Source of the DNA: a bacterium
GTDB taxonomy: Bacteria > SAR324 > NAC60-12
Length of the DNA stretch: 36,007 bases
Direction: 5' to 3'
Assembly (NCBI GenBank): GCA_965233585.1
Contig: CBDDTI010000109.1
Coordinates: forward strand, 1 to 36,007
A program made the translations under genes and the position numbers. The notes under the pieces were generated by a model. That model was not told the origin of the DNA and made no database searches. It saw nothing but the letters and a program-made list of their open reading frames with translations. Every line of letters starts with the position of its first letter. Positions within the stretch are counted from its first letter, which is position 1. Below are positions 9,361 to 34,293 of the stretch, piece by piece.

Positions 9361-9945
9361 CTAATCTAGCTTGGTGACTGAATTGTATTCGGTCACTTCC
9401 AGTCTGAGTGGATTGATGACATCCACATTTTCTATTCCTAATCTTATATCGTTTTCTGGGAATTGAGTCAAGAGTTTCCACTGTATCAGTGCGACTTTCT
9501 TTTCAATGTTTTCATCAGTCTGACTAATATACTCCATTTGAATTAAGTTGTCATCTAATTTTTCAGTTGAGATGATTTTAATTTGAACAATTTGATTGGA
9601 TTGTTTGAATCGTCTCCATTTAGAGAATAAGAAAGGATTTGTGAATGCTTTGAGATTTTCTAAATCCCTTCTTTCATGGAGTAAGATGAATGTTTTAAGA
9701 TATTTCTGAATGATGAAATCATCACCAGACGTCAATCCATCTTGAACGGATTGGATTTGTTGGATGTGTTGGTTTTCGTAGAGATAGACCTTTTGTGTAT
9801 TGATTTGTCTTGATAGATAGCGATTGGATATAGATTGATAGACAATTCCAGCTAAAGCAATCAGACAAGCAGAGATGAGAATCTTGGTAATGGCTTTTTG
9901 GACTTCCCAAGTTTCAAAAGAGAGTTGAAATCTGTGAATTTTCAT
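9361..9945 (-). CDS. VirB8-like protein (paralog 2)
   Basis: Single N-terminal TM, YLKTFILLHER helix, C-terminal INPLRLEVTEY resembling the VirB8 NPLGF.V..Y motif. Confidence 0.6.
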   Translation of the reverse strand: MKIHRFQLSFETWEVQKAITKILISACLIALAGIVYQSISNRYLSRQINTQKVYLYENQHIQQIQSVQDGLTSGDDFIIQKYLKTFILLHERRDLENLKAFTNPFLFSKWRRFKQSNQIVQIKIISTEKLDDNLIQMEYISQTDENIEKKVALIQWKLLTQFPENDIRLGIENVDVINPLRLEVTEYNSVTKLD

Positions 9946-13383: not shown

Positions 13384-14514
13384 ATGCGAGTAGATACATC
13401 AGACATAGGTAAGGATGTCATCATTATTGTTGAAAAAAATGGAACACAAAAAAGATGTGGAATAACCACTTCAGGTAGAAAGTATATTGAGTATCAAGGC
13501 AATCAATACGATTTAGTTGAAAAACAAGGTCAAATTGATGAAAGGATTCCAGAAGGCAGTTTTTCAAGATGTATTTTTTTAATGGATGTAGATTTTAGTT
13601 CTGCCAATTTTACAGGAAGTGTAGATTTTAAAGAAAAACATTTTTCAGAACATGCATCTTTTAGTCATGCTACTTTTTTAGAATATGCAAATTTTAGTCA
13701 TACCACTTTTTCAGAATATGCAAATTTTAGTCATACCACTTTTGTCAAAGATGTATTCTTTAACAACGCCATTTTTTCAGAACAATCTTTTAACGAAGCC
13801 ATTTTTTCGGAACATGCATCTTTTAGAGATGTATCTTTTTTAGAACATGTATCTTTTAGAGATGCATCTTTTTCAAAACACGCAGATTTTAATTTTGCTA
13901 GCTTTTCAAAAGATGTAGATTTTGAGTTTGCCTCATGTGAAAGGGTCCTGTCTTTGAGGGAACTTCAAAAATCAGGAGTCTTGAATCTTAAATCTGCTCA
14001 AGTTGGGAAGATAGATTACTATGACACAACCATAGATCAAGCAGCCAATCGTGAAACTTTTTTGGTTCTCAAAAACCTTGCGATTGACCAACAAGATCAA
14101 GTAAAAGCTTTAGACTTTCATGTTCAGGAGATGGAGATGTATAGAAAAAGTTTAAGCTGGAAAAAGTTTGATTGGTGGCTTTTAGATTTTGAGAAGTTTA
14201 CCAGTAGTTATGGGACGAAGCCTTGGCAACCTTTGCTGTGGATTATTTTTTTTCAAGGTTTGATGCTGACTTTTATGTTTCCCCTATTTACCAATGGCGC
14301 ATTAGAATTGACAGAATATCTTTCCAGCATTTTAGGTTATAAATTTTGGTCTCATGAAAGTTTAGAACCACTTCAATTCTCTGAATATTTCCAAGAAAAT
14401 AGCCTACTCTCATTGGGGAGTTTAAAACTTATCAATAGCCTCAAGAACATTGGCACTGTAGTGCTGCTTTATGAGCTTATCAAGTCTTTTAGAAAGTTTT
14501 CAAGGAAGCTTTAA
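13384..14514 (+). CDS. Pentapeptide-repeat membrane protein
   Basis: Repeated A.F...TF units (HASFSHATF, YANFSHTTF); TSSYGTKPWQPL followed by C-terminal TM helices. Confidence 0.85.
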   Translation: MRVDTSDIGKDVIIIVEKNGTQKRCGITTSGRKYIEYQGNQYDLVEKQGQIDERIPEGSFSRCIFLMDVDFSSANFTGSVDFKEKHFSEHASFSHATFLEYANFSHTTFSEYANFSHTTFVKDVFFNNAIFSEQSFNEAIFSEHASFRDVSFLEHVSFRDASFSKHADFNFASFSKDVDFEFASCERVLSLRELQKSGVLNLKSAQVGKIDYYDTTIDQAANRETFLVLKNLAIDQQDQVKALDFHVQEMEMYRKSLSWKKFDWWLLDFEKFTSSYGTKPWQPLLWIIFFQGLMLTFMFPLFTNGALELTEYLSSILGYKFWSHESLEPLQFSEYFQENSLLSLGSLKLINSLKNIGTVVLLYELIKSFRKFSRKL

Positions 14515-14659: not shown

Positions 14660-14835
14660 TTTCCCTCCTCTCCGTTAAAGTAAATAAATATAAGTGCTAC
14701 GTGAATGATAACACCAGCCGCTAGCAAGCACCATGCTTCTAGTGCATATGTTGTTTTTTCTGATGCAATGTAGTTGATTGCACCTCCTATCAGCCCTCCA
14801 CTGAGTCCAATCTCTACCAGTAATAAATTTTTCAT
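14656..14835 (-). CDS. Small membrane protein A, cassette copy 3 (59 aa)
   Basis: MKNLLLVEIGLSGGLIGGAINYIASEKTTYALEAWCLLAAGVIIHVALIFIYFNGEEGK; clear paralog of 21585-21773. Confidence 0.75.
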   Translation of the reverse strand: MKNLLLVEIGLSGGLIGGAINYIASEKTTYALEAWCLLAAGVIIHVALIFIYFNGEEGK

Positions 14836-15595: not shown

Positions 15596-17380
15596 TTAAA
15601 CAGAGATATTGGGTTCAATGTCTTTGTTGTCTTTCTTGGGTAAATTTGTTTTGACTTCAGGAGTTTTGGGGACAGGATTGCCCACTTCAAAATCTTTCTG
15701 GTCTTGTTGGAATGATGGCATGTTGTCGTAAAGATCAAGAGGCGGTCTCTCATCATTTTGAGCAAAGGAAGGCATGTTGTCATAAAGATCAAGGGGCGGT
15801 CTCTCATCATTTTGAGCAAAAGAAGGCATGTTGTCATAAAGATCAAGAGGAGGTAAATCCATCGGAGGCCTGTCTGATGCCTTCTCTTTTTGAAGTTGTT
15901 GATTGGTCTCTTTTTCATTGGTTTTCTGCTTGGATTGTTGAGCAAAGTTTTGAGAACGTTCATGCGTCTTTTGAGGAACAGACTCAGATTGAGCAGAAAA
16001 AGAAGGAAAAGCAGGCATGTTTGATGGAGCTTGTGGCGTCTGCTGTGATGCACTTTTTTTCTCTTTCATATCTGATGAAGTGTGAGAAGAGTGAGATGCT
16101 TCCTGTGTCTGCTGTTGCTGTGAAGCAGTAGAAGATTGAGAACTTTGAACAGTTTCAGAGGAGGCAAGAGTGCCTTCAATGATTCTATCTGCACCAGTCG
16201 CACCAGAACCTGATTGAGAAGATGACCCTTGAGTTTGGGGGTTGTCATCAGGCATCTTTTGTACAGAAAAAGGAGGCGGTTCAGGTTGTCCAAGATTCCT
16301 GTATTCTTCAACAGGAATATGAGGCAGGAACACAGGCGGTGCAGGGAGCTGAGGAACATCACCAGCACCAGATGACTCTCCCCCACCATCTGAACGCATT
16401 CCTCCTAGCATTTCTTTAGCACTGCTGATGCCTGCTTTTCCTGCACCATAAGCAGCCTTGCCAGCCCTCGCTGCACTGGCAGCAGCAGAAATGCCTTTGG
16501 CAGTCGCACCAATGATGTCTCTCCCAATCTGAAATGGATTGCTTCCCTTGCTAGAGACATTGCCCCGAGTCAAAGAATTAGCAATCTCTGCCACCTTAGA
16601 AAACGAAAAACAAGCAATCAATCCAATTAAAATAATAATCCCTGAAGGAATAGGAGAAGAGGAGTTTTCAAGACTTTGGTAGTCCAAAGCCAACCTAAAA
16701 ATCAACTCATTGACAAGATAAATAATACAGGTCGCAATGACTGGATACAACATAACAGTCAGCACAGCACGAAACCATTCAAAAAACACATTCCTACTCT
16801 CTGAAAAGGCAGAGAGCATAATGACCGCAGGAGAAAACAGCATATAAATCACTACATTAGACAAAAAAGCAAACTGCACCAGCCAATACTGTAAGTAAGT
16901 GATATACACCACCAAAGCAGCAAGATAGATGATGAACGCATCATAAGTTGGCAAGACTGACATCCAGCGGTCATCATTGCCTGCTTGTTCTATCAGATTG
17001 TCATAAATCATACTGTACAGCTGGCTCATGTTAGTCTCTGACGGAATTTTGAGACCCAAATTGTTGGCATTGGCAGAAATAATAAATTCAGCAATTTCTT
17101 TGGGGGTGTCAAACACCAGAGCAATCAAATACTCTTCATAAGACTCCATATTCGTTATGAAGTTAAAATTCATAGAAAGCAGGAGACCTGTGAACATGGT
17201 TTTGTAGCCGACTGTGCCGATTCCCGTTTTAAACGCAAAGACAAAGTAAAACAGAATCGCCAAGTGAAACCCTGCCGAAAAAATAGGCTGTGCTGCATGA
17301 CCAAACACCGAATACAAACCCAAAATCACCTCTATAAGAGTTGTCTCAAAAATCTCATAAACTTCATTTCCTCTAAACAT
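15596..17380 (-). CDS. virB6: VirB6/TrbL family protein with long low-complexity C-tail
   Basis: Multiple TMs; SPAVIMLSAFSESRNVFFEW TrbL/VirB6 motif; Ala/Gly-rich then Ser/Gln-rich tail. Confidence 0.85.
   Translation of the reverse strand: MFRGNEVYEIFETTLIEVILGLYSVFGHAAQPIFSAGFHLAILFYFVFAFKTGIGTVGYKTMFTGLLLSMNFNFITNMESYEEYLIALVFDTPKEIAEFIISANANNLGLKIPSETNMSQLYSMIYDNLIEQAGNDDRWMSVLPTYDAFIIYLAALVVYITYLQYWLVQFAFLSNVVIYMLFSPAVIMLSAFSESRNVFFEWFRAVLTVMLYPVIATCIIYLVNELIFRLALDYQSLENSSSPIPSGIIILIGLIACFSFSKVAEIANSLTRGNVSSKGSNPFQIGRDIIGATAKGISAAASAARAGKAAYGAGKAGISSAKEMLGGMRSDGGGESSGAGDVPQLPAPPVFLPHIPVEEYRNLGQPEPPPFSVQKMPDDNPQTQGSSSQSGSGATGADRIIEGTLASSETVQSSQSSTASQQQQTQEASHSSHTSSDMKEKKSASQQTPQAPSNMPAFPSFSAQSESVPQKTHERSQNFAQQSKQKTNEKETNQQLQKEKASDRPPMDLPPLDLYDNMPSFAQNDERPPLDLYDNMPSFAQNDERPPLDLYDNMPSFQQDQKDFEVGNPVPKTPEVKTNLPKKDNKDIEPNISV
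15709..15853 (-). repeat. 54-bp tandem repeat in the virB6 tail (about 2.7 copies)
   Basis: PPLDLYDNMPSFAQNDER unit; GGCATGTTGTC at 15717, 15771 and 15825. Confidence 0.9.
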
Positions 17381-17417
17381 TTTTTTTACTTTTGTGACAA
17401 AGATTAATCAAACAGTT

Positions 17418-17453
17418 ATCTACAACAGTAGAAATTAAGTCAGTCTATCAGAC
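17418..17453 (-). CRISPR. Solitary type V-A CRISPR repeat upstream of virB6
   Basis: ATCTACAACAGTAGAAATTAAGTCAGTCTATCAGAC is 33/36 identical to the array repeat; the AATTTCTACTGTTGTAGAT handle is intact. Confidence 0.92.
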
Positions 17454-17500
17454 TTGATTTTTGATAACGAAAGTAGTAATTTGATAGAAATTTAGAAACG

Positions 17501-17674
17501 ATGAAAAACATCTTGTTACAACAAATGAACGCCTGCCTTGCAGGCATTGGTGGCTGTCTGGCTTATTTTGCAAGTGAAAAAACAAAGTACATAGACCAAG
17601 CAGTTTATCTCACACTCGGATTTGCCATTGCTTATCTAGTTATATTTTTAATCTACACAAAAGAAGACTCATGA
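17501..17674 (+). CDS. Small membrane protein A, cassette copy 4 (57 aa)
   Basis: MKNILLQQMNACLAGIGGCLAYFASEKTKYIDQAVYLTLGFAIAYLVIFLIYTKEDS; shares the SEKTKY motif. Confidence 0.75.
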   Translation: MKNILLQQMNACLAGIGGCLAYFASEKTKYIDQAVYLTLGFAIAYLVIFLIYTKEDS

Positions 17675-17781
17675 CAGGAGAAACCGCCATCTACGTTGCT
17701 TCAGGCATCTTTTTTATGAGTGTTTTGATTACCATCATCAAAACACTCAAACAACAAAAACGAAACAAAACAACTACTTAA
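17671..17781 (+). CDS. Small single-TM protein B, cassette copy 4 (36 aa)
   Basis: MTGETAIYVASGIFFMSVLITIIKTLKQQKRNKTTT; ATGA overlap with A. Confidence 0.65.
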   Translation: MTGETAIYVASGIFFMSVLITIIKTLKQQKRNKTTT

Positions 17782-18850
17782 ACAAGGGACCTGAGTCATA
17801 TCTCTTGTAGTATTTGCTTTGTCTGACTTTTTCCAACAAAGCATCAAAGTTAGGAGTCGCAGACTGATGTTGGTCAGCACTTTTACCCTTTGCTCGCAAG
17901 TCACGGATTTGCTGTTCAGTCAGGGACAGCTTCGCCGCACGTTGCAGTTGCCGCACGTTTCGTTTCTGCTTAGCGTGCAAGTTGATGCCGTTCAAATAAA
18001 TCCCCTCCAGATTTTTGTCAATCCTGTGCAAGATTTTAAGCATTTGCCACTGAAGCATCATCTGTGTATCTAATGTTCCTTTTGTTCCCTCAGTACTCGG
18101 GTCATTTCCAGACACCCGATCAGCTAGAATCTCCCACTCTTTGTCTTTGAGTTTTTTATAGTCTTCGTCCAGATTTTTCATGTATCTTGAATTGATGCGA
18201 TTAAACTCACCTCGCTCCCTCTTGAGCTTGTCCATTGCTTCGTCATAGTAGGTCTTGACTAAAGCACACTTGCCTTTGACAAGCATGCCCAGCTGGTTAG
18301 TGCCTGCTTTGCGATGCACACGTTTTTTCAAGTAAAGCCCTCCCTCGGGATCCACCTCTAACGTGGTATAGGTAGATTCCCTAGAGTCTACGTCATTGTT
18401 AAATCCAAGCTCTTTTGCTATCAGCCCCTCCCCTATCTTTTCAGGATCCTTGCCGTAGAAGTAACGTGCATTCCACATGTTTTCAGTTTTCTGATAAGCA
18501 TCTACATCAGAAAAAACACACTCTGAGTCTTTTTTGAACTGCTCAATCGCAGCCTGAAACTCCCCCGGAGTTTTTTCTAGCTCATCCTTGAGTTGCTTAA
18601 TTTCCCCCATCACCCCAAAAACAGAGTTGTAGACTTTTGCCATTTCGCTCCTCATGTTCATAATCTCGTCCTGTACATTCATCATGGTCATCACTGCTCT
18701 TCTGCTAGTTTTCACTTGCTCCCTCAAATTCGCAACAGATTTAACCGCCTGCTCAAAATTTGAGGGATCGAAGACGTATTGAACACCCTGACCGTAAACT
18801 ACTGAAGGAATGACAGCGACCAAAAAAATATATTTAATTTTCATTAACAT
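17774..18850 (-). CDS. virB5: VirB5/TrbJ-like minor pilin
   Basis: Signal peptide then VFDPSNFEQAV, helical coiled coil, located upstream of virB6. Confidence 0.7.
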   Translation of the reverse strand: MLMKIKYIFLVAVIPSVVYGQGVQYVFDPSNFEQAVKSVANLREQVKTSRRAVMTMMNVQDEIMNMRSEMAKVYNSVFGVMGEIKQLKDELEKTPGEFQAAIEQFKKDSECVFSDVDAYQKTENMWNARYFYGKDPEKIGEGLIAKELGFNNDVDSRESTYTTLEVDPEGGLYLKKRVHRKAGTNQLGMLVKGKCALVKTYYDEAMDKLKRERGEFNRINSRYMKNLDEDYKKLKDKEWEILADRVSGNDPSTEGTKGTLDTQMMLQWQMLKILHRIDKNLEGIYLNGINLHAKQKRNVRQLQRAAKLSLTEQQIRDLRAKGKSADQHQSATPNFDALLEKVRQSKYYKRYDSGPLFK

Positions 18851-19214
18851 ACAAATCTCCTTTTGAATTTAATTGATTTGAACTTAATCCACCACTAGGA
18901 CTAACTTCTCTATAATTAGCAATTCCATCTGCGCCAACAGAACAGGCTTTTTCTTTTGCTTCTTTCATGGCTTCTTCTACTGGTTTATTACTACAACCAC
19001 AGAAAATCCCTGCTTGCAACTGCTGAAAAATAGTCACCTCCCCTATTTTTTTCTGTCCCTCTTGCAGAGGTTCACGCGAAATGGGAATGTCACAGGTTTT
19101 AGGCTTTGGTTGGTAGTTTTCATCAGTCATCTGGCTGTACAGAGCTGGCTGGGAACACCCCGCCATCAGGGCGGTTGCACAAGTGGCAGTGATGATTGAT
19201 TTGATTGTTTTCAT
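18834..19214 (-). CDS. Small lipoprotein next to virB5 (candidate entry/surface exclusion protein)
   Basis: Lipobox MAGC; KIGEVT...KEKACSVGADGI resembles the YbjQ/RcsF-like fold. The exclusion role is inferred only from position. Confidence 0.7.
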   Translation of the reverse strand: MKTIKSIITATCATALMAGCSQPALYSQMTDENYQPKPKTCDIPISREPLQEGQKKIGEVTIFQQLQAGIFCGCSNKPVEEAMKEAKEKACSVGADGIANYREVSPSGGLSSNQLNSKGDLYVNEN

Positions 19215-19269
19215 AAAATTCCCTTGTAAAAAAAATAATTAAAAAAAGTAAAGAGTTATTTCTTATTAT

Positions 19270-19802
19270 ATCTACAACAGTAGAAATTAAATAAGTCTAT
19301 TAGACCTCTTGCAGAGGTTCACGGGAGACGGATCTACAACAGTAGAAATTAAATAAGTCTATTAGACAGCAAAATATAGAGTAAATGTCTGGTATCTACA
19401 ACAGTAGAAATTAAATAAGTCTATTAGACCAGCTCTTTATTCTAAGATGACAGATATCTACAACAGTAGAAATTAAATAAGTCTATTAGACCATTCCACA
19501 TGTTCTCTGTTTTCTGAATCTACAACAGTAGAAATTAAATAAGTCTATTAGACGAGTTGCTTAATCTCTCCCATGACACATCTACAACAGTAGAAATTAA
19601 ATAAGTCTATTAGACAATTTTACGGCTAAGCCTCTTGGCTGATCTACAACAGTAGAAATTAAATAAGTCTATTAGACACATGTTTTCAGTTTTCTGATAC
19701 GCATATCTACAACAGTAGAAATTAAATAAGTCTATTAGACTGACATTCCTGTCTCTCGTGAACCCTATCTACAACAGTAGAAATTAAATAAGTCTATTAG
19801 AC
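19270..19802 (-). CRISPR. Type V-A (Cas12a-type) CRISPR array 1: 9 repeats, 8 spacers of 26-27 nt
   Basis: Identical 36-bp repeats, minus strand GTCTAATAGACTTATTTAATTTCTACTGTTGTAGAT, at 19270, 19332, 19394, 19456, 19518, 19580, 19642, 19705 and 19767. The 3' 19 nt is the canonical Cas12a handle. Confidence 0.98.
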
Positions 19803-19945
19803 CGATAACACGCTTGCAACCCGCACATCTTGGTCAAAAAACAAAATCAAAAGTGTAAATTTTGAGCAATTTCTGCCATTAAGACTCAGGTTTGCAATTT
19901 TTTAAGAAAGAAACGATCCATCAGCGGTATAGCTTCATCCTCATC
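19803..19945 (-). promoter_or_regulatory. CRISPR leader-containing segment, copy 1 (143 bp)
   Basis: Identical to 20294-20436; lies 5' of the array in the crRNA orientation. Confidence 0.8.
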
Positions 19946-20293
19946 ATCTACAACAGTAGAAGTTAAATAAGTCTATTAGACATTATCATCAGTAGTGGGT
20001 CTATACTTCGATCTACAACAGTAGAAATTAAATAAGTCTATTAGACCCAGTACCAGAAGATGACCCTTGAGATCTACAACAGTAGAAATTAAATAAGTCT
20101 ATTAGACGAAAGAAATGATCAAGCTATCCAGTGATCTACAACAGTAGAAATTAAATAAGTCTATTAGACATTAAAGCGTTTTATGTTAGATTCATATCTA
20201 CAACAGTAGAAATTAAATAAGTCTATTAGACGATTTTGATTTTCATAATTTTCCTTGATCTACAACAGTAGAAATTAAATAAGTCTATTAGAC
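19946..20293 (-). CRISPR. Type V-A CRISPR array 2: 6 repeats, 5 spacers of 25-29 nt
   Basis: Repeats at 19946 (one A>G change), 20011, 20072, 20134, 20196 and 20258. Confidence 0.97.
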
Positions 20294-20461
20294 CGATAAC
20301 ACGCTTGCAACCCGCACATCTTGGTCAAAAAACAAAATCAAAAGTGTAAATTTTGAGCAATTTCTGCCATTAAGACTCAGGTTTGCAATTTTTTAAGAAA
20401 GAAACGATCCATCAGCGGTATAGCTTCATCCTCATCATCTACAACAGTAGAAGTTAAATAA
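20294..20461 (-). promoter_or_regulatory. Leader copy 2 plus truncated 25-bp variant repeat (20437-20461)
   Basis: Exact duplicate of 19803-19970; ATCTACAACAGTAGAAGTTAAATAA, then similarity stops. Confidence 0.85.
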
Positions 20462-20500
20462 AAATTTTGTTTCATTTCATAGGCAATTTTTGGTCAGAGG

Positions 20501-21478
20501 TTAAAGGTTTTGAATTTGTTGTTTGGGTAGTCCAGTGGCAATGCTGATGGTATCAATGTCTAATCCTTGAGCCAGCATCTTTTTGGCAATTTCAATAGCT
20601 TTTTGTTGTTCTCCTTCTTGCCGTCCTTTTTCTATGCCTTTTTCCATTCCTTTTTCCATTCCTTGCTGGAGACCTTCTTCTTTGCCTTCTTGCCGTCCTT
20701 TTTCCATTCCTTTTTCCATTCCTTTCTCCATTCCTTTTTGAAGACCTTTTTGGAATCCCTGTTTAAGTTGGAGTTGTTCAGCACCTTTGATGATGGCAAC
20801 AAACTCCTGCCTTTTGTAGATGACTTCTAGTTCTTCAGGAGACAGCCCTGCTTGATTGACCAGATGTAAGGCTTCTTGAATGGTTGGATTAAAAGTTTGG
20901 GGAATCTCTTGTAAGCCTTCAGCGTGCTTGATGCAATAAATCCACTCTTCTTGCAACTCTTTGAGTTCATCTAAAGACTTTTGAAACTTGGGGAGTTCTA
21001 CAAAGATCAATTCAATGTCATCAGAATACGGGCTTAAGTTCTTCTTCTCTAACAATTTGAAAACATTGATGATTTGGTCATTGTTTTCAAACATGATGAA
21101 GTCAAGGATATTGAGAGCAATGACAGGATTCAGCAGATGAAACTCCTGCCCTTTCTCTAGTTGCATAGAGTAGTTTTTACAAGCATTGTAAAGGATTCTT
21201 TTCTCAAAACCTTCATGGTTGATGACCTGCATCTCAATCAGGACTTGCTGACCTGTGTCTAGTTTCGCTTTGACATCAACAAAGGTGATTTTCATACCTT
21301 CTAGCAAAGGCGGGTTGTAAGGGTCTTGAATGGTCAGGTCTTGAATTTTCTGCTGATGAGGAAACTCAATGAGCGAGTTAAGAAAGCTGATGAGTAGCTT
21401 CTTATTCTTCTCATCTCCAAACAGCATCTTAAAAGCATAGTCTGTTTTAAGGTCTAAAAACTTCATCATTTTTGGCAA
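20501..21478 (-). CDS. Rpn family PD-(D/E)XK nuclease (PDDEXK_2)
   Basis: DLKTDYAFKMLFG, VDVKA, IEMQ, FVELPKF; C-terminal (EKGM)n repeats and IAKKML..GL..DTISIATGL. Confidence 0.92.
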   Translation of the reverse strand: MPKMMKFLDLKTDYAFKMLFGDEKNKKLLISFLNSLIEFPHQQKIQDLTIQDPYNPPLLEGMKITFVDVKAKLDTGQQVLIEMQVINHEGFEKRILYNACKNYSMQLEKGQEFHLLNPVIALNILDFIMFENNDQIINVFKLLEKKNLSPYSDDIELIFVELPKFQKSLDELKELQEEWIYCIKHAEGLQEIPQTFNPTIQEALHLVNQAGLSPEELEVIYKRQEFVAIIKGAEQLQLKQGFQKGLQKGMEKGMEKGMEKGRQEGKEEGLQQGMEKGMEKGIEKGRQEGEQQKAIEIAKKMLAQGLDIDTISIATGLPKQQIQNL

Positions 21479-22848: not shown

Positions 22849-25142
22849 ACCACTGCCCGTAAATACTCTTGCATGAGTTCTTGAGGAGAAAGGTTTTGTT
22901 TTTGGAGTGTTTCAATGGCTCTGACGTGAGTTTGAGAGGAATTGAAAACGTGTAGATATTGTTTTAAAAAAGCTAAGTTAACTTGGACAATGTCAGTAGA
23001 ACCGCCCGCTGTTTTGACCATGACGGCTCTGGTTTTAGGGTCTGTGTTTTTCAGCCAAGCCAGTTCGTCTTGATTGAGTCCAATGCCGTCTAAGTAGGCA
23101 TCAGGATTCAATCCCTCACGAGAAGGAAACAGAATAAACTTGGCAAAGTTAGCAAGATTTTGTTTTCCGATGGGGTGCAAATAGAGATGATCTAAAGACT
23201 GCACGGCTGCGACAAAAACACCATTGAGTTTTCGCAACTCCTGCAACATTCTGGCAGCGATTTTAGCAAAGACCTCAGATTCTAAATATCTGCGAAACTC
23301 ATCAACAAAAATGAGGCGAGGAGTGCCATCGCAAGACTTAAAGAACCGATGCGAGAGATAAGACGCAAACAGCCCCAGCTCCTCAGGTCTCTCTAAGAGA
23401 TGCGTGAAATCAAAACACAACCAGTCAGCCTCAAGAGGCACTGGCTGTCCAGAAAACAAACCTGACTTTGTGCCAGTAGAGCCGTATTGTTTCAGTTTCT
23501 CATACAACGGCTCTCCTTTTTGAGCAATGGTGTGAAGGAGCTGATCCACGGTGCGACTGGACAAGTCCCAATCCAGAATCTGCGATGCCCCTGCAATGAT
23601 TTTGAGCTTGTCTTGCTCACTTTGCACCTGTGCCATGTCACACAAGAAATCAATCAAGAATCCTGAATCCTCTTTGTCCAAATCAAACGGATTGAGCGAC
23701 AAGCCTCCTTGCTCAAAGTTTAAATACTTGCCACCAAGTAACAATGTAGAAACTTTGAGACCTTGCAGTTGGTCAAAAGCGAGCATCTTCATTCCTTTGT
23801 ACTTAGTGGCTTGTGCCAGTAAAAAACTAATCAAAGTGGTCTTACCTGACCCTGACGAGCCAACGACTAAAGTATGCCCTAAGGCACTTTGTGAAGAATC
23901 TTTGTGAAAGCAAAAGTTGTAGATAGACCCTGACGCACTAGAGAAGTGAGTCAACGGCTCACTTCCCCACGAACAAGACGTCAATCCCTCTTGAGAAGAA
24001 GGAAACGCGACAAAGCAACTGGCATTTTGTGATGTGATTTTTGTGTTTCGTTTGTTTGCCTTGCGTTTGGGTGGAAACTGCGAATAAAACAAAGATTCTT
24101 TGAGCAAGGTGTCATTACCCAGCAAATAGCCGTTCTGGTCTAAGAATTTTCTAATTTTCAAGCAATCCTGCTTGTTCTGACTTTCGGAGTGAGAAATGAC
24201 TTGAATCGTGAAGTAATGTTGAATGAGCTGAATCAAGTCAGCCTGCAAGTTGTTTTGAAGCTCATAGTATTCTTGCAACACAAAGTCTGCATACTTGACG
24301 AATTGATGAGTGAACCGAATCTTGTCAGCCACGAACGCTAAGGCTTTCTCTTTCTCCATGTAGTCAAAATGATGAGCCACCATCATCTCCACAGGTAGCT
24401 CAAGCAATCGGTCAAAGACAGGTTGTGCGGCATAGTCTCCATAGTTGCGAATCGTCATAAAAGACGACACCCGATTGGTGTTGAGATAGTGCAAATAAGG
24501 GTCAAAGCGAGACATCTTGATTGGCGTGTTGAGAATCCACTCATCCAAAAGTTGCTTGTTGAATTGCAAAGGGTTTTCAAAACACTCTGCATTGATGAGC
24601 GTGGCTAGAAACTGCAACAACACAGAACCTTTGAGCCTGATACAACCAAAGTCTTCAAATGCTGACAAGAAATAAGTTGCCACTTGCTCCAGACGTTCCA
24701 CATCGGATGCAATGTTCCGCAACTTCTTGATGGGATTGGTCTTGCTAGTGAGCATGAGATAATGCTGTGTTTCATAAACCGATTGAAACGACCCTGCCCA
24801 AGATTGAGCGATGGTTTGGACGTTGACATTGTTAAATTCACTGACTTTCAGATCACTCTGTTTCTGAAAGCGAGTGTGAAAGATAGAGATGACAAGGTCA
24901 TCATTATTAGCAAAGGTAGAGTTTCTGACTTGATACAACATCTGTTTTCTGCTTTCGGGAATGGCATTGTAATCCACCCCTGCAAGACTCATCACACAAG
25001 ACACAGTCTCATCTTTGTTCAAAATCAAGGCATCAGAGAACAAGCACAACATCGGCAGTTGCGGACTTTCTAACCCTTGCCAATTCTTGAAAGGATTCAA
25101 CCACTGACTTTCGGAAAACTCTTTTTTCAAAAACTCCAGCAT
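22845..25142 (-). CDS. virB4: VirB4 ATPase
   Basis: GHTLVVGSSGSGKTTL Walker A, IFVDEF Walker B, LRKLNG, 765 aa. Confidence 0.95.
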   Translation of the reverse strand: MLEFLKKEFSESQWLNPFKNWQGLESPQLPMLCLFSDALILNKDETVSCVMSLAGVDYNAIPESRKQMLYQVRNSTFANNDDLVISIFHTRFQKQSDLKVSEFNNVNVQTIAQSWAGSFQSVYETQHYLMLTSKTNPIKKLRNIASDVERLEQVATYFLSAFEDFGCIRLKGSVLLQFLATLINAECFENPLQFNKQLLDEWILNTPIKMSRFDPYLHYLNTNRVSSFMTIRNYGDYAAQPVFDRLLELPVEMMVAHHFDYMEKEKALAFVADKIRFTHQFVKYADFVLQEYYELQNNLQADLIQLIQHYFTIQVISHSESQNKQDCLKIRKFLDQNGYLLGNDTLLKESLFYSQFPPKRKANKRNTKITSQNASCFVAFPSSQEGLTSCSWGSEPLTHFSSASGSIYNFCFHKDSSQSALGHTLVVGSSGSGKTTLISFLLAQATKYKGMKMLAFDQLQGLKVSTLLLGGKYLNFEQGGLSLNPFDLDKEDSGFLIDFLCDMAQVQSEQDKLKIIAGASQILDWDLSSRTVDQLLHTIAQKGEPLYEKLKQYGSTGTKSGLFSGQPVPLEADWLCFDFTHLLERPEELGLFASYLSHRFFKSCDGTPRLIFVDEFRRYLESEVFAKIAARMLQELRKLNGVFVAAVQSLDHLYLHPIGKQNLANFAKFILFPSREGLNPDAYLDGIGLNQDELAWLKNTDPKTRAVMVKTAGGSTDIVQVNLAFLKQYLHVFNSSQTHVRAIETLQKQNLSPQELMQEYLRAVV

Positions 25143-30450: not shown

Positions 30451-33400
30451 ATGGAGAACACCATGAAAAAACTCACGTCCTGCCTCGTACTCATCTTTTA
30501 TGGATTCACGATGGTCGCAGAAACCTTACAAATCACACTGACCCAAGAGACTTTTTTGAAAGACAAGGAGCAAGCACTAGGAGATGTGTTGTTCCAGCAG
30601 AAGACGTTGTCGTTTAGTGGAACACTTGCTGTGGAGCAGTTGAACGGGACACAGCGGATTAAAATCAACTGGACAAAAGTCAATGGCAAGTCCGCTCCCA
30701 GTGAATTTTTGTCTCAATTTAAGACTCAAAGCCAAGAATTACCCAGAGGGTTCAAGTTCAATATCACAGGAGACTTTGAATCGCTCAATGATCCCAGTCT
30801 AGCAGTGGCAGTCGTAGATGAAGTGGAAGATTCAGGTGTTTCAGATTCATCTGTTCCCTCTGCTTCAAATTCTGCTCCAAAAGAAAGTCAGGGATTAACA
30901 GACTCTGCTGACAATCCTGATGCTGCAACTGCAACCTCTCCTGTTTCCATTCCAAATCAACAGGACATGACTCAAAATCAAGGCACTCAAAGCACTCCAG
31001 AAAGGTCTTTCCAAAAAGAAAAACAAGAAGAAAAGAATGATGATGATGAAAAAGATACTCCTGAACAACAAGAAGAAAAAAGAAATGATGCAACAGCAAT
31101 AGACACGTTGACAGAGACAACTCATGAAACTTGTGATGCTCAAATCACTGATGTTGCTTACATCACAAGGAAGCAAAAAGTGTTGTCCTATTCTTCAGGC
31201 AAGAAGGTCAGACAAGAGTGCCAGAATGACAGAACCTTTGCTTTGCTGGAAACTTTTCAAGGGTGCAGTCCCAGACATGACTTTCAGAACAAACGAACCA
31301 TCATGCAGAAGAAAAAATACTATGTCTCTGATGCAGGCTCACGAGTGGACATTGTCAACTGTACAGACTCCAAAATCATCTATCCTCATTTACAAGCTGT
31401 GTTTGACTGCACTCCTGTCTTTGATGCAGGTCAGCAGAGAGCCTACACCACCAAAAAAACCTACTATGTGGACGGCACTGGTTCTATTCAGACCATTACA
31501 GACTGTCGCATGGCTTCTGATGACTTTCAGACCTTCACTCAAAATGATTATCTCATAGAGTATTCTGATAAAGACCGAATAGACCATGCTAACAAAGTGG
31601 TCTATCGCAGAATGAGGCATTACATCAAAGTCGGAGACCAGAAGAAAGTGATTGGTTCGTGGCAAGATGACACTGCTAAACCGATGCCGATTGTCAGGGA
31701 ATATGACAAATGTAGTTACTTTCACAACAAACAAGCCCAGAAGTCATACAGGCAATATGCAGATGTCTATTACAAGAACGGACAAAGGCAAGTGGTCATT
31801 GCTTGTCAAAAAGACCCAAACAACTACTTTGCTCACATCTCTGATTCCAAATACTGTGACCCAATGGTCAACAATCGCAAAATGGTGTTGCGGAAGTCTG
31901 TCTATTTCTTTGACCAAAACGGACAGAGAAAGAACGTAGAAGATTGCAAAGTCTCTTCTGTGGAACACGATTTGACTCCTGCAGACATTCAAAAAGACTT
32001 CTCAGTTTGTAAGGCTCATTTGGATTTTGCTGCCAAACGTGCCTATCCCAAATATAGAGAATTTGTCCAAATCAAAGAAAGCAAGACCTACATCTCTAAC
32101 TGCCAAAAAGACAGCAACTTCTTTGACATGGTAGAGACTGATCAAGGATGTTCTCCTCGTTTTGATTTCAATCAAATGCAAGCCATCATCAAAAAAAGAC
32201 TCAAATACAATGATAGCCAGAAGGATGTCTTTGTCTCTGCTTGCTTGGAGACTTTTAGGCGGTATGTTCTCAAAAATGATGCTGCCATGTGCCGTGATCG
32301 GCTTTCTGAAGACAAGATGAGCATCATCAAGTTTCAAGCTGTGGTTTACACCGATGACAAAGGAGTTAAAAAAATTGCTCAAACTTGTCAATCTACTCAT
32401 CACTCCACTCCCATTGATCCCAAGAAATTGGTCAAAAAATACACCTGTGCAGACCTCTATGATGTCCCCAACATGAAGGTTTACAGACAATACAAAAACT
32501 ATTTAAATCTAGGAGGAAAAGAAGAAGAAATTAGCAGTTGTCTGGTAGATAAGAGCCAGTTTTATCCCATTGAGAGAGATTTTGCTGATTGTAAGAATGA
32601 TTACAACACCTTCACGATGAAAGCCATCTTAAAAAACAAACTGTTTTACAACACAGGCATTGAGAAAAGATACATCAGTGCTTGCTTGACCTCCAATATA
32701 CAATATGACCTCCAAAAGACCACTGGAACTTGTCCACCCAAGTTGTCCCTCAATAATTCTATGTTGGTCGCTCAACAAGAAATCTATTACATTGACCCCA
32801 ATACCAAGAAACGAGTGGTTGTTTTGCACTGTCACGAAACTGATCAACTCACAGCGATTCCAGATTCTATGATCATAAAAAAATATGCAGAATGTCCTGT
32901 CTTTTGGAATCCAAAAACTTTGAAAGTGGTCAAACAATACAGGAAGTATGTCAAGTTAGATGGACAGACTGAAACCAAGATTTCTGATTGTGTCTTTGAC
33001 CCTGCCAAAACCTACAACTCTCAATGGGATTACTCCAAATGCTCTGTGAGAGTGGACACAGTAGCAGGAAAAGTCAGAGAACTTGCCAAAGCCTATTATA
33101 ATGACGGGGCGCAGGATCATTATGTCTCTGATTGTGTAGAGACTGGAACGTTGTATGCGATCAAAGACAATCACAACATTTGCCAACCCATCAAACTGGC
33201 TAATCCGACCAAAGTCATCTTGCAGAAAAGACTTTATTACAATGACCGTTTAGGAATTGTCACGTGGCTTGGACAATGTGAGCCTTCTTTGACAGTAGAT
33301 TCAGGAAAAGAAAAGTTATGTGCATCGTCTCCTATCAACTACAATGACAATGTCAACCAAGCGTTTTTAAACACGAAATGGATCTATCAGCACGGTGCCA

Positions 33401-34293
33401 GTGAGATTGAGTTGGTGTCTTGCAACGTGAAAGCACAACGTCCGTCTTCTACTTATACTCAAAGACTCTGTGGTTGGCAGCATGCCAGAGCGTCTTCTTA
33501 TGGAGAACGAGGTTATTCCAAACCTAAGATTGAGTCGTATATTCAATTTCCTCAAACCTCTCTCAATGTTTTACTAGATGCCAATGTAGTTGGAACGAAG
33601 AAATACATAGTTCCCACCAAAAAATGTGATGTTTCTAACATTGAAGTCAATCACTCCACTAGACATGTCTTTGCCAAATATTGGCATCAAAACTTCTTTA
33701 GGATTATTAACCAAACTCATACCAGACAAGTCACCTCCTCTATTCCTATCACTCAAAGGTATCTTTATGCAAAAGTAAATTGTAGTAGGTATGCTCATTC
33801 AGATTCACAAACAGACTACCCCTACAGGATGCGTTATTACTATCCTGAGAGTCAGACTCATTCTTCTCCGAGGCGCGTGGCAAGTTGTGGTGCTTATAGC
33901 GATATTTATAAAACAAAGACTGTTGGATACACCTATCATTTCTCTCAAACCAATGAGTATGAAATTCAGTGTGGTTCACGCTTTAGAAAAGCGATCATTT
34001 ACTCCTACCCGACTAATTACAACATTGCCCAACAAAGTTCTAGCTCCTTTGGCAATGATTACGATCACATCAAATTAGATGCCTATGCTAAAACCAAGTG
34101 GGGAACGTCTTTTAAGGTATACAAAAGTGCGGGAAGTAGTTCTTTTGACTCCAGAAATGCACATTTAAATTCTGCTCCCAGTCCCTCCAATCCGTCTCTC
34201 AGTAACCTTTGCAATACCTCCAAGATAGAAGGAGATCAAGATTCTTACGGAAACTGGAGGGTGGATAATGGTCTTGATGGAAAAAGGAACTGA
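30451..34293 (+). CDS. Large secreted Cys-rich repeat protein (putative adhesin) inside the virB9-virB11 operon
   Basis: Signal peptide, S/Q/E-rich linker, about 15 repeats of roughly 50 aa with C-x(~30)-C, unique C-terminus. Confidence 0.8.
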   Translation: MENTMKKLTSCLVLIFYGFTMVAETLQITLTQETFLKDKEQALGDVLFQQKTLSFSGTLAVEQLNGTQRIKINWTKVNGKSAPSEFLSQFKTQSQELPRGFKFNITGDFESLNDPSLAVAVVDEVEDSGVSDSSVPSASNSAPKESQGLTDSADNPDAATATSPVSIPNQQDMTQNQGTQSTPERSFQKEKQEEKNDDDEKDTPEQQEEKRNDATAIDTLTETTHETCDAQITDVAYITRKQKVLSYSSGKKVRQECQNDRTFALLETFQGCSPRHDFQNKRTIMQKKKYYVSDAGSRVDIVNCTDSKIIYPHLQAVFDCTPVFDAGQQRAYTTKKTYYVDGTGSIQTITDCRMASDDFQTFTQNDYLIEYSDKDRIDHANKVVYRRMRHYIKVGDQKKVIGSWQDDTAKPMPIVREYDKCSYFHNKQAQKSYRQYADVYYKNGQRQVVIACQKDPNNYFAHISDSKYCDPMVNNRKMVLRKSVYFFDQNGQRKNVEDCKVSSVEHDLTPADIQKDFSVCKAHLDFAAKRAYPKYREFVQIKESKTYISNCQKDSNFFDMVETDQGCSPRFDFNQMQAIIKKRLKYNDSQKDVFVSACLETFRRYVLKNDAAMCRDRLSEDKMSIIKFQAVVYTDDKGVKKIAQTCQSTHHSTPIDPKKLVKKYTCADLYDVPNMKVYRQYKNYLNLGGKEEEISSCLVDKSQFYPIERDFADCKNDYNTFTMKAILKNKLFYNTGIEKRYISACLTSNIQYDLQKTTGTCPPKLSLNNSMLVAQQEIYYIDPNTKKRVVVLHCHETDQLTAIPDSMIIKKYAECPVFWNPKTLKVVKQYRKYVKLDGQTETKISDCVFDPAKTYNSQWDYSKCSVRVDTVAGKVRELAKAYYNDGAQDHYVSDCVETGTLYAIKDNHNICQPIKLANPTKVILQKRLYYNDRLGIVTWLGQCEPSLTVDSGKEKLCASSPINYNDNVNQAFLNTKWIYQHGASEIELVSCNVKAQRPSSTYTQRLCGWQHARASSYGERGYSKPKIESYIQFPQTSLNVLLDANVVGTKKYIVPTKKCDVSNIEVNHSTRHVFAKYWHQNFFRIINQTHTRQVTSSIPITQRYLYAKVNCSRYAHSDSQTDYPYRMRYYYPESQTHSSPRRVASCGAYSDIYKTKTVGYTYHFSQTNEYEIQCGSRFRKAIIYSYPTNYNIAQQSSSSFGNDYDHIKLDAYAKTKWGTSFKVYKSAGSSSFDSRNAHLNSAPSPSNPSLSNLCNTSKIEGDQDSYGNWRVDNGLDGKRN

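Follow-up and report, generated by a model that had tools for sequence, protein, structure and literature searches.

Virus-borne CRISPR mini-arrays, whose repeats are identical to those of the host, have been described as targeting related viruses, and a competition experiment is cited in this context (PMC11656645). For orphan arrays on plasmids, the use of host Cas proteins in trans was hypothesised and their function termed "as yet unknown" in a survey that also describes class 2 systems as poorly represented on plasmids apart from type V-F (Pinilla-Redondo et al., PMC9071438). Type IV-A3 and V-M systems of plasmids are described as mediating inter-plasmid competition with effectors of their own, mostly by transcriptional repression, and type IV-A3 as borrowing host adaptation proteins in trans (PMC11656645). 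The subject here is a pair of type V-A (Cas12a) CRISPR arrays on a 36,007-nt contig of a SAR324 bacterium (CBDDTI010000109.1 of assembly GCA_965233585.1; hereafter the window), which is a conjugative plasmid without a detected cas gene. Together with the Cas12a of the host, these arrays probably serve in competition between plasmids, the carrier being spared by sequence divergence and by the purging of self-cutting spacers.

As in the viral mini-arrays, arrays without cas genes are found on a mobile element, with host-identical repeats, with spacers that appear to be directed against close relatives and with sequence differences that would spare the carrier (PMC11656645). Unlike these mini-arrays, which are described there as holding one or two spacers, the arrays of the window are located on a conjugative plasmid, belong to type V-A and contain eight and five spacers, and each has a host-like leader and lies inside a row of type IV secretion system (T4SS) genes, beside the genes that are targeted. 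An array on a conjugative plasmid with spacers against plasmids also matches the orphan plasmid arrays as surveyed (PMC9071438), with the difference that a cognate chromosomal V-A locus, leader homology and an apparent allelic origin of the spacers are here found in one assembly. With type IV-A3 and V-M plasmids the window shares the logic of inter-plasmid conflict and the targeting of essential or transfer genes, but in the absence of an effector of its own this plasmid would depend on a nuclease-competent host Cas12a. Finally, a solitary repeat that keeps an intact Cas12a handle on a mobile element recalls the RNA anti-CRISPRs (Racr) and Cracr RNAs, including CracrVA1 (PMC10651486; bioRxiv 10.1101/2024.10.29.618823); unlike the Cracr RNAs described there, nothing spacer-like in the locus was found to match the region upstream of the host cas12a, and its main arrays contain full-length spacers with an apparent specificity for sibling plasmids. 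The arrangement can be regarded as a plasmid counterpart of the virus-borne mini-arrays and as a concrete case of the host-Cas-in-trans idea for orphan plasmid arrays. All of it is contained in a single assembly: a Cas12a locus on the chromosome, arrays on the plasmid that share its repeat, a copied leader and sibling-type spacers. With a defined Cas12a, arrays and targets, CRISPR-mediated plasmid incompatibility via borrowed class 2 machinery becomes testable.

The window is the entire contig C109, one of the 747 contigs of a 12-Mb assembly with an estimated contamination of 2%. It is a circle of approximately 35,994 bp, because its ends share a 13-nt overlap upon whose removal a 649-aa topoisomerase open reading frame (ORF) closes over the junction. 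The 31 longest non-overlapping ORFs, out of 70 listed ORFs of at least 70 aa, were scanned with Pfam and yielded matches to VirB3-, VirB4-, VirB6/TrbL-, VirB8-, VirB9-, VirB10- and VirB11-like proteins, a coupling protein, a relaxase, a primase/ArdC protein, ParA and a PIN toxin module, while no cas gene was found among them. The arrays are flanked by a gene for a small lipoprotein (18834-19214) on one side and by one for an Rpn-family nuclease (20501-21478) on the other, and are co-oriented with the minus-strand T4SS genes. Spacers are numbered from left to right on the plus strand, and the strand of the CRISPR RNA (crRNA) is the minus strand. The CRISPR elements are as follows.

19270..19802, minus strand: CRISPR array 1, nine identical 36-nt repeats and eight spacers, S1 to S8 (26-27 nt), with S8 leader-proximal
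19803..19945, minus strand: leader copy 1, 143 nt
19946..20293, minus strand: CRISPR array 2, six repeats and five spacers, S9 to S13 (25-29 nt)
20294..20436, minus strand: leader copy 2, 143 nt
20437..20461, minus strand: truncated copy of the variant repeat, preceding leader copy 2
17418..17453, minus strand: solitary repeat in which three bases are substituted and the 19-nt 3' handle is perfect; it lies 37 nt upstream of the start codon of the VirB6-like gene

Cas12a repeats are defined by a TCTAC-NNNN-GTAGA hairpin at their 3' end, beside the spacer. The reverse complement of the plasmid repeat, i.e., its minus strand, ends in TCTACTGTTGTAGAT, the Cas12a handle; this end, the 15 repeats and spacers of 25-29 nt identify the arrays as type V-A. 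The leader-distal repeat of array 2 carries one substitution, and the two arrays are linked by an exact 204-nt duplication comprising a repeat, the leader and the variant repeat (19767-19970 is identical to 20258-20461). The handle of the solitary repeat is the only perfect one that the 12-Mb assembly contains apart from those in arrays, and the repeat is a candidate RNA anti-CRISPR of the Racr type or a Cas12a processing site in the operon transcript. Apart from one sub-threshold miRNA match, an Rfam search over 17000-21000 returned nothing. Part of the repeat has a 99% identical counterpart of 26 nt in the phage record MK496734.1 (2204-2229; a capybara microvirus; E=0.3 per piece), a likeness that is probably due to chance.

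A Cas12a that is associated with the same repeat is present in the same assembly. Contig C745 (621 kb) contains a complete cas12a-cas4-cas1-cas2 locus, the Cas4 and Cas1 of which are of type V, together with an array of a leader and approximately 197 repeats (391545-404723) and a second array of 47 repeats (87795-90716). All but few of these 244 repeats are identical to the plasmid repeat, and over its repeat-proximal part the plasmid leader is identical to both chromosomal leaders at 114 of 127 positions (90%). The match in repeat and leader and the absence of cas genes among the ORFs scanned on the plasmid agree with the use of host Cas proteins in trans. The 241 spacers of the host arrays include 217 unique ones, indicating internal duplications. 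The host Cas12a (1544 aa; C745:406982-411616) scores 776.7 bits against TIGR04330 (cut-off 300), and among solved proteins an entry named ReChb and FnCas12a come closest to it. All three RuvC motifs occur in it, and the WED motif GWDKNKE, which contacts the protospacer-adjacent motif (PAM), is identical to residues 608-614 of FnCas12a, so that the enzyme looks active and FnCas12a-like. It is approximately 240 aa longer than solved Cas12a proteins (1206-1365 aa), the extra part preceding the RuvC region. One "spacer" of the host arrays (C745:403042-403068) is a 27-nt palindrome; a dispersed palindromic element, found with varied flanks on C745, C746, C747 and other contigs, matches its bases 4-27 in at least 94 copies.

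In the favoured explanation, the host Cas12a would process the crRNAs of the plasmid and cut incoming or co-resident sibling plasmids, so that the arrays would act as a programmable weapon of exclusion or incompatibility, and the Cas4-Cas1-Cas2 proteins of the host would be able to extend them. The carrier would survive since its own sites are disabled, either because they lack a TTV PAM (S7, S8 and S10) or because several of the 17 PAM-proximal positions are mismatched (S1, S3, S4 and S5); such sites would arise by neutral synonymous divergence and by the loss of plasmids with self-cutting spacers. The genes and self sites concerned are listed below, with flanks and mismatch positions in crRNA orientation.

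17774..18850, minus strand: gene encoding a secreted protein of 358 aa that is VirB5-like by its position; targeted by S4, S5 and S7
18834..19214, minus strand: gene of a 126-aa lipoprotein with lipobox LMAGC, directly adjoining array 1; target gene of S1, S3 and S8
19059-19084, minus-strand protospacer: S1 self site in the lipoprotein gene, flank ATTC, mismatches 3, 5 and 8
19067-19092, plus-strand protospacer: S8 self site in the lipoprotein gene, flank TGCA, six mismatches
19122-19147, plus strand (guide equals plus strand): S3 self site in the lipoprotein gene, flank TTTC, seven mismatches
18469-18494, minus strand: S4 self site in the VirB5-like gene, flank CTTA, mismatches 10 and 13
18475-18501, minus strand: S7 self site in the VirB5-like gene, flank GTAG, mismatch 5
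18590-18615, minus strand: S5 self site in the VirB5-like gene (codons 79-87), flank TTTG, mismatches 2, 5, 11 and 14
16203..16233 (ungapped 16209-16233), minus strand: S10 self site in the VirB6-like gene, flank CAAA
about 19200..19230, minus strand: gapped site of S13 (match at about 19200-19226) over the lipoprotein start codon, flank TTTA

The overlapping sites of S4 and S7 correspond to codons 117-128 of the VirB5-like gene. At the S10 site, 17 perfect PAM-proximal nucleotides are followed by a 6-nt in-frame indel and then by seven matches in eight positions. Chance levels were estimated by comparing the best ungapped match of each spacer with 200 shuffles and the gapped score with 100 shuffles. 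An equally good ungapped match was reached by none of 200 shuffles for S1, S4, S5, S7 and S10, by one for S8, 14 for S3 and 34 for S13, and by 119-200 for S2, S6, S9, S11 and S12, which are at chance level. In the gapped comparison, the numbers out of 100 were zero for S1, S4, S5, S7, S8 and S10, 51 for S3, 24 for S13 and 32-81 for S2, S6, S9, S11 and S12. The scores of S3 are not significant at the DNA level alone, but homology was rescued at the protein level, as seven of eight residues are identical in frame with the 126-aa gene, a level reached by none of 60 shuffles. Seven of the 13 spacers hence have supported self homologues. A preliminary description of this DNA had listed seven self sites as real homologies; for S1, S3, S4, S5, S7 and S10, every mismatch position and flank that it gave was reproduced exactly and the homology stands, whereas the gapped TTTA site of S13 exists as described but is indistinguishable from chance (30 of 60 shuffles in the peptide test, in addition to the counts above), is not the top gapped match in the window and was rejected as a homologue. 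Most sites fall within 18469..19230, where that description had placed them, with S10 (16209-16233) outside, and the site of S8 had been missed.

Matches to the plasmid family are concentrated in the plasmid arrays: they were found for 7 of the 13 spacers on the plasmid and for 4 of the 217 unique ones in the host arrays (P=8e-8), a 30-fold enrichment, and no spacer is common to plasmid and host arrays. This bears on the possibility that the arrays are a passenger, i.e., a captured piece of a host array without a targeting role, or a decoy in which they and the solitary repeat act as a Cas12a sponge against the host spacers. In its favour, the leader and repeat clearly come from a host-type locus, four host spacers are derived from this plasmid family, a sign of CRISPR pressure on the plasmid, the handle of the solitary repeat is perfect, and Racr and Cracr RNAs are described as occurring on plasmids (bioRxiv 10.1101/2024.10.29.618823; PMC11656645). 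A decoy, however, needs no specific spacers, and the resident plasmid already escapes all four host spacers via mismatches or a missing PAM. Furthermore, none of the guides finds a PAM-flanked match as long as 10 nt in the host cas locus or upstream of it: when 16 guides, i.e., those of the 13 spacers, that of the solitary repeat and those of the stretches that follow the variant repeat and the last repeats, were compared with C745:404724-412200 in search of a Cracr- or CreR-type match, the sole hits were two seeds of 8-9 nt, neither of them TTV-flanked. A passenger or decoy function is accordingly considered unlikely.

The differences between spacers and self sites point to the origin of the spacers. 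Of 23 such differences, 17 are located at third codon positions (P=8e-5), and those of S4 (two), S5 (four) and S7 (one) are all at third positions and all synonymous. The three differences of S1 include one change from I to V, which recurs among the six differences of S8, and S3 differs at 7 of 26 nt with one change from Q to K and a switch of serine codon family. The overlap of S4 and S7 covers 20 nt, and at two positions within it the two spacers disagree, the self sequence being equal to S7 there. That of S1 and S8 covers 18 nt, with three states at position 19077 (C in the self sequence, G in S1 and A in S8). The overlapping pairs would therefore record different alleles, at least three per site. 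Because the differences are mostly synonymous and overlapping spacers hold different alleles, the preferred reading of at least seven of the 13 spacers is that they are copies of diverged alleles of the plasmid's VirB5-like, lipoprotein and VirB6-like genes, captured from several diverged sibling plasmids and not from the carrier itself.

An origin of the spacers from the plasmid's own array-adjacent DNA, followed by escape through PAM and synonymous seed mutations, would fit the position of the sites, since six of the seven supported ones (18469-19147) are found within 680 nt beside array 1 (P=4e-10 under uniform sampling), and escape mutations in essential genes would likewise be synonymous. 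Protospacer hotspots of this kind are known from E. coli. In P. furiosus, too, active CRISPR arrays were described as protospacer hotspots, on account of nicks that integration makes in the leader-proximal repeat (PMC5737086). The sequence differences themselves argue against stepwise escape: the newer S8 is further from the self sequence (six differences) than the older S1 (three), the reverse of the expected order, and the three states at 19077 and the two positions at which S4 departs from both S7 and the carrier likewise speak against it. The extent of change in S3, including the serine codon-family switch, and the in-frame indel at the S10 site add to many more changes than escape needs. 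A self-derived origin hence appears quite improbable, and capture from sibling plasmids is preferred.

A TTV motif at positions -3 to -1 is present at four of the seven supported sites (TTTC, TTTG, ATTC and CTTA) against a background of 0.069 (P=6.6e-4), which bears out the earlier proposals that TTV or TTTV on the expected side supports the array orientation and that the PAM is T-rich; the flanks from which this T-rich 5' PAM is indirectly read are those of diverged alleles. In F. novicida, Cas4 is described as selecting TTTN during type V-A adaptation (PMC13034035). The host arrays provide an independent set of spacers against this plasmid family, four in number, which nearly match the plasmid at the following sites.

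Plasmid position 24005 (virB4): host spacer C745:397914, flank CATC, mismatches 16 and 25, both at third codon positions
Plasmid position 539: host spacer C745:398852, flank TGAT, mismatches 22-24
Plasmid position 9681: host spacer C745:394220, flank ATTC, mismatches 11, 16 and 26
Plasmid position 14761: host spacer C745:398100, flank TTTC, five mismatches

With these four host-spacer sites included, TTV is found at 6 of 11 sites (P=3.6e-5). All four sites with at most one mismatch in positions 1-17 (S7, S10, C745:397914 and C745:398852) are without TTV, while six of the seven more diverged sites keep it (Fisher P=0.015, with a post hoc grouping and n=11). Across the 11 pooled sites (seven of plasmid and four of host spacers) it is thus suggestive that near matches lack TTV and that TTV goes with divergence. 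The rule of the preliminary description, according to which a PAM and a near-perfect match do not coincide at any self site, is borne out and can be extended to the host spacers. These have three perfect self matches and one with a single mismatch on large contigs of the assembly (C745:258859, C746:814425, C747:994729 and C746:51754), none of which is TTTV-flanked. This extension argues for an interference that is active and PAM-dependent, and the sites constitute a natural data set on the combinations of PAM and mismatches tolerated by Cas12a in vivo. Self-avoidance, as it had been called, is real as an outcome; it is not evidence that self sites adapted to avoid the arrays, given that the differences are mostly synonymous and overlapping spacers represent different alleles. 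Its cause would most simply be survivorship, with siblings approximately 4-27% diverged at the sites and any self-cutting spacer being lost along with its carrier.

The closest to a self-reactive site is still that of S4, as had been proposed. It has nine contiguous PAM-proximal matches and matches at 24 of 26 positions overall, but a match of this quality is expected to risk cleavage by Cas12a rather than to give clean repression. The repression of virB5 by S4 that the preliminary description had suggested found no positive support. That partial guides, chiefly S4, bind without cutting and tune the plasmid's T4SS genes, with which the arrays are co-oriented, is highly improbable, as the other PAM-bearing sites (S1, S3 and S5) are mismatched within positions 2-5, the near-perfect sites are without a PAM and the mismatches follow the pattern of neutral synonymous divergence and not of a designed truncation; a regulatory role, for which a viral V-A Cracr RNA repressing with 10 contiguous nucleotides and TTTA provides a precedent (bioRxiv 10.1101/2024.10.29.618823), is conceivable for S4 only.

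Several points weigh against inter-plasmid competition as set out above. Expression of the arrays and cleavage of the targets are inferred from the sequence, as is the presence of C109 and C745 in one cell, for which repeat and leader identity are the evidence. The promoter-like element of the host leader, located approximately 250 nt upstream and beyond the portion kept by the plasmid, is missing from the plasmid leader, so transcription from the operon must be assumed. Since this element lies outside the retained leader, the plasmid appears to have kept the integration-relevant leader end, and the arrays would be read through from the T4SS operon; the sole strong minus-strand promoter-like site near the plasmid arrays (21832-21804) is located upstream in the operon. 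The solitary repeat, if an RNA anti-CRISPR, could counter the arrays, and this Cas12a might still cut the S4 site, which is flanked by CTTA and mismatched at just two positions, if it tolerates CTTV. S2, S6, S9, S11 and S12 have no match at four or fewer mismatches in the 12-Mb assembly, and no sibling plasmid with a perfect protospacer was found in any collection searched. Lastly, a model of sibling competition alone does not account for the way in which the protospacers cluster next to the array.

This clustering is not simply due to a hypervariable patch, because the protein segments that are targeted are conserved even in the single distant homologue. Siblings whose arrays at the same locus are break-prone protospacer hotspots, as described for P. 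furiosus, could shed spacers from that neighbourhood. Alternatively, cutting by Cas12a could seed further acquisition nearby, and acquisition near effector cuts is known for other CRISPR types. Either way, the clustering hints at a hotspot- or interference-driven acquisition in type V-A. A further-reaching version of the favoured reading is put forward tentatively, as possible but somewhat doubtful: the plasmid would exploit both arms of the host type V-A system, i.e., interference by Cas12a and adaptation by Cas4-Cas1-Cas2 via an integration-competent leader, with arrays that grow in situ and record an arms race among siblings focused beside the array, and the resident plasmid would be an escape variant with regard to plasmid and host spacers alike. 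If true, such in situ growth would amount to a heritable and updatable CRISPR-based system of incompatibility or exclusion inside a T4SS operon.

The target plasmids are inferred and were not seen, because the plasmid family is essentially unsampled. A blastn search of PLSDB with 17400-19270 gave no match, and the array DNA gave only chance-level matches to PLSDB and phages at E values up to 10 (best E=0.03), the viral contigs not having been scanned with single spacers. Among 60 relatives searched by DNA there were two marginal matches (E~4e-4), the remainder being repeat matches within the same assembly, and 63 other genomes of the order gave none (query P0002). The exact repeat did not occur in GTDB representative contigs and JGI metagenome contigs, where a search for VirB5-like proteins returned 32 and 86 pattern matches, respectively, with none confirmed. 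In four runs of one study, Logan contigs at 80% likeness included only an identical 3,923-nt contig and short spurious pieces, a result with which minor alleles are compatible, as Logan contigs drop rare variants. No RNA run is listed among those that contain the stretch. The nearest homologues of the VirB5-like protein (53% identical, the only one found) and of VirB4 (64%) are both encoded on one 25,987-nt ENA contig.

With regard to the targeted genes, the name virB5 in the preliminary description is upheld by gene order, the 358-aa gene being located between the lipoprotein gene and the TrbL/VirB6-like gene, and by a weak Atlas lead to PF07996 (rank 24, score 0.89; 32% of cluster members with PF07996). 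It is not upheld by profiles, as the protein matches no Pfam family, VirB5/TrbJ (PF07996) included, and no NCBIfam family, and the label remains positional. The 126-aa lipoprotein has no Pfam or NCBIfam match either, and its Atlas leads point to small lipoproteins of the RcsF/DUF4156 kind. On the other side of the arrays, one gene adjoins them and breaks the row of T4SS genes.

20501..21478, minus strand: Rpn-family PD-(D/E)XK nuclease or putative transposase gene (PF12784, 1e-48; TIGR01784)

Import or duplication of the array cassette may have been aided by this enzyme. Elsewhere on the plasmid, a 1280-aa ORF on the plus strand (30451-34293), situated between the VirB10-like and VirB11-like genes, matches no Pfam or NCBIfam family. 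Two tandem repeats, one of 33 nt in 7.7 copies within a pentapeptide-repeat ORF (13641-13891) and one of 54 nt in 2.6 copies in the VirB6-like C-terminal region (15717-15854), could be iterons or coding repeats.

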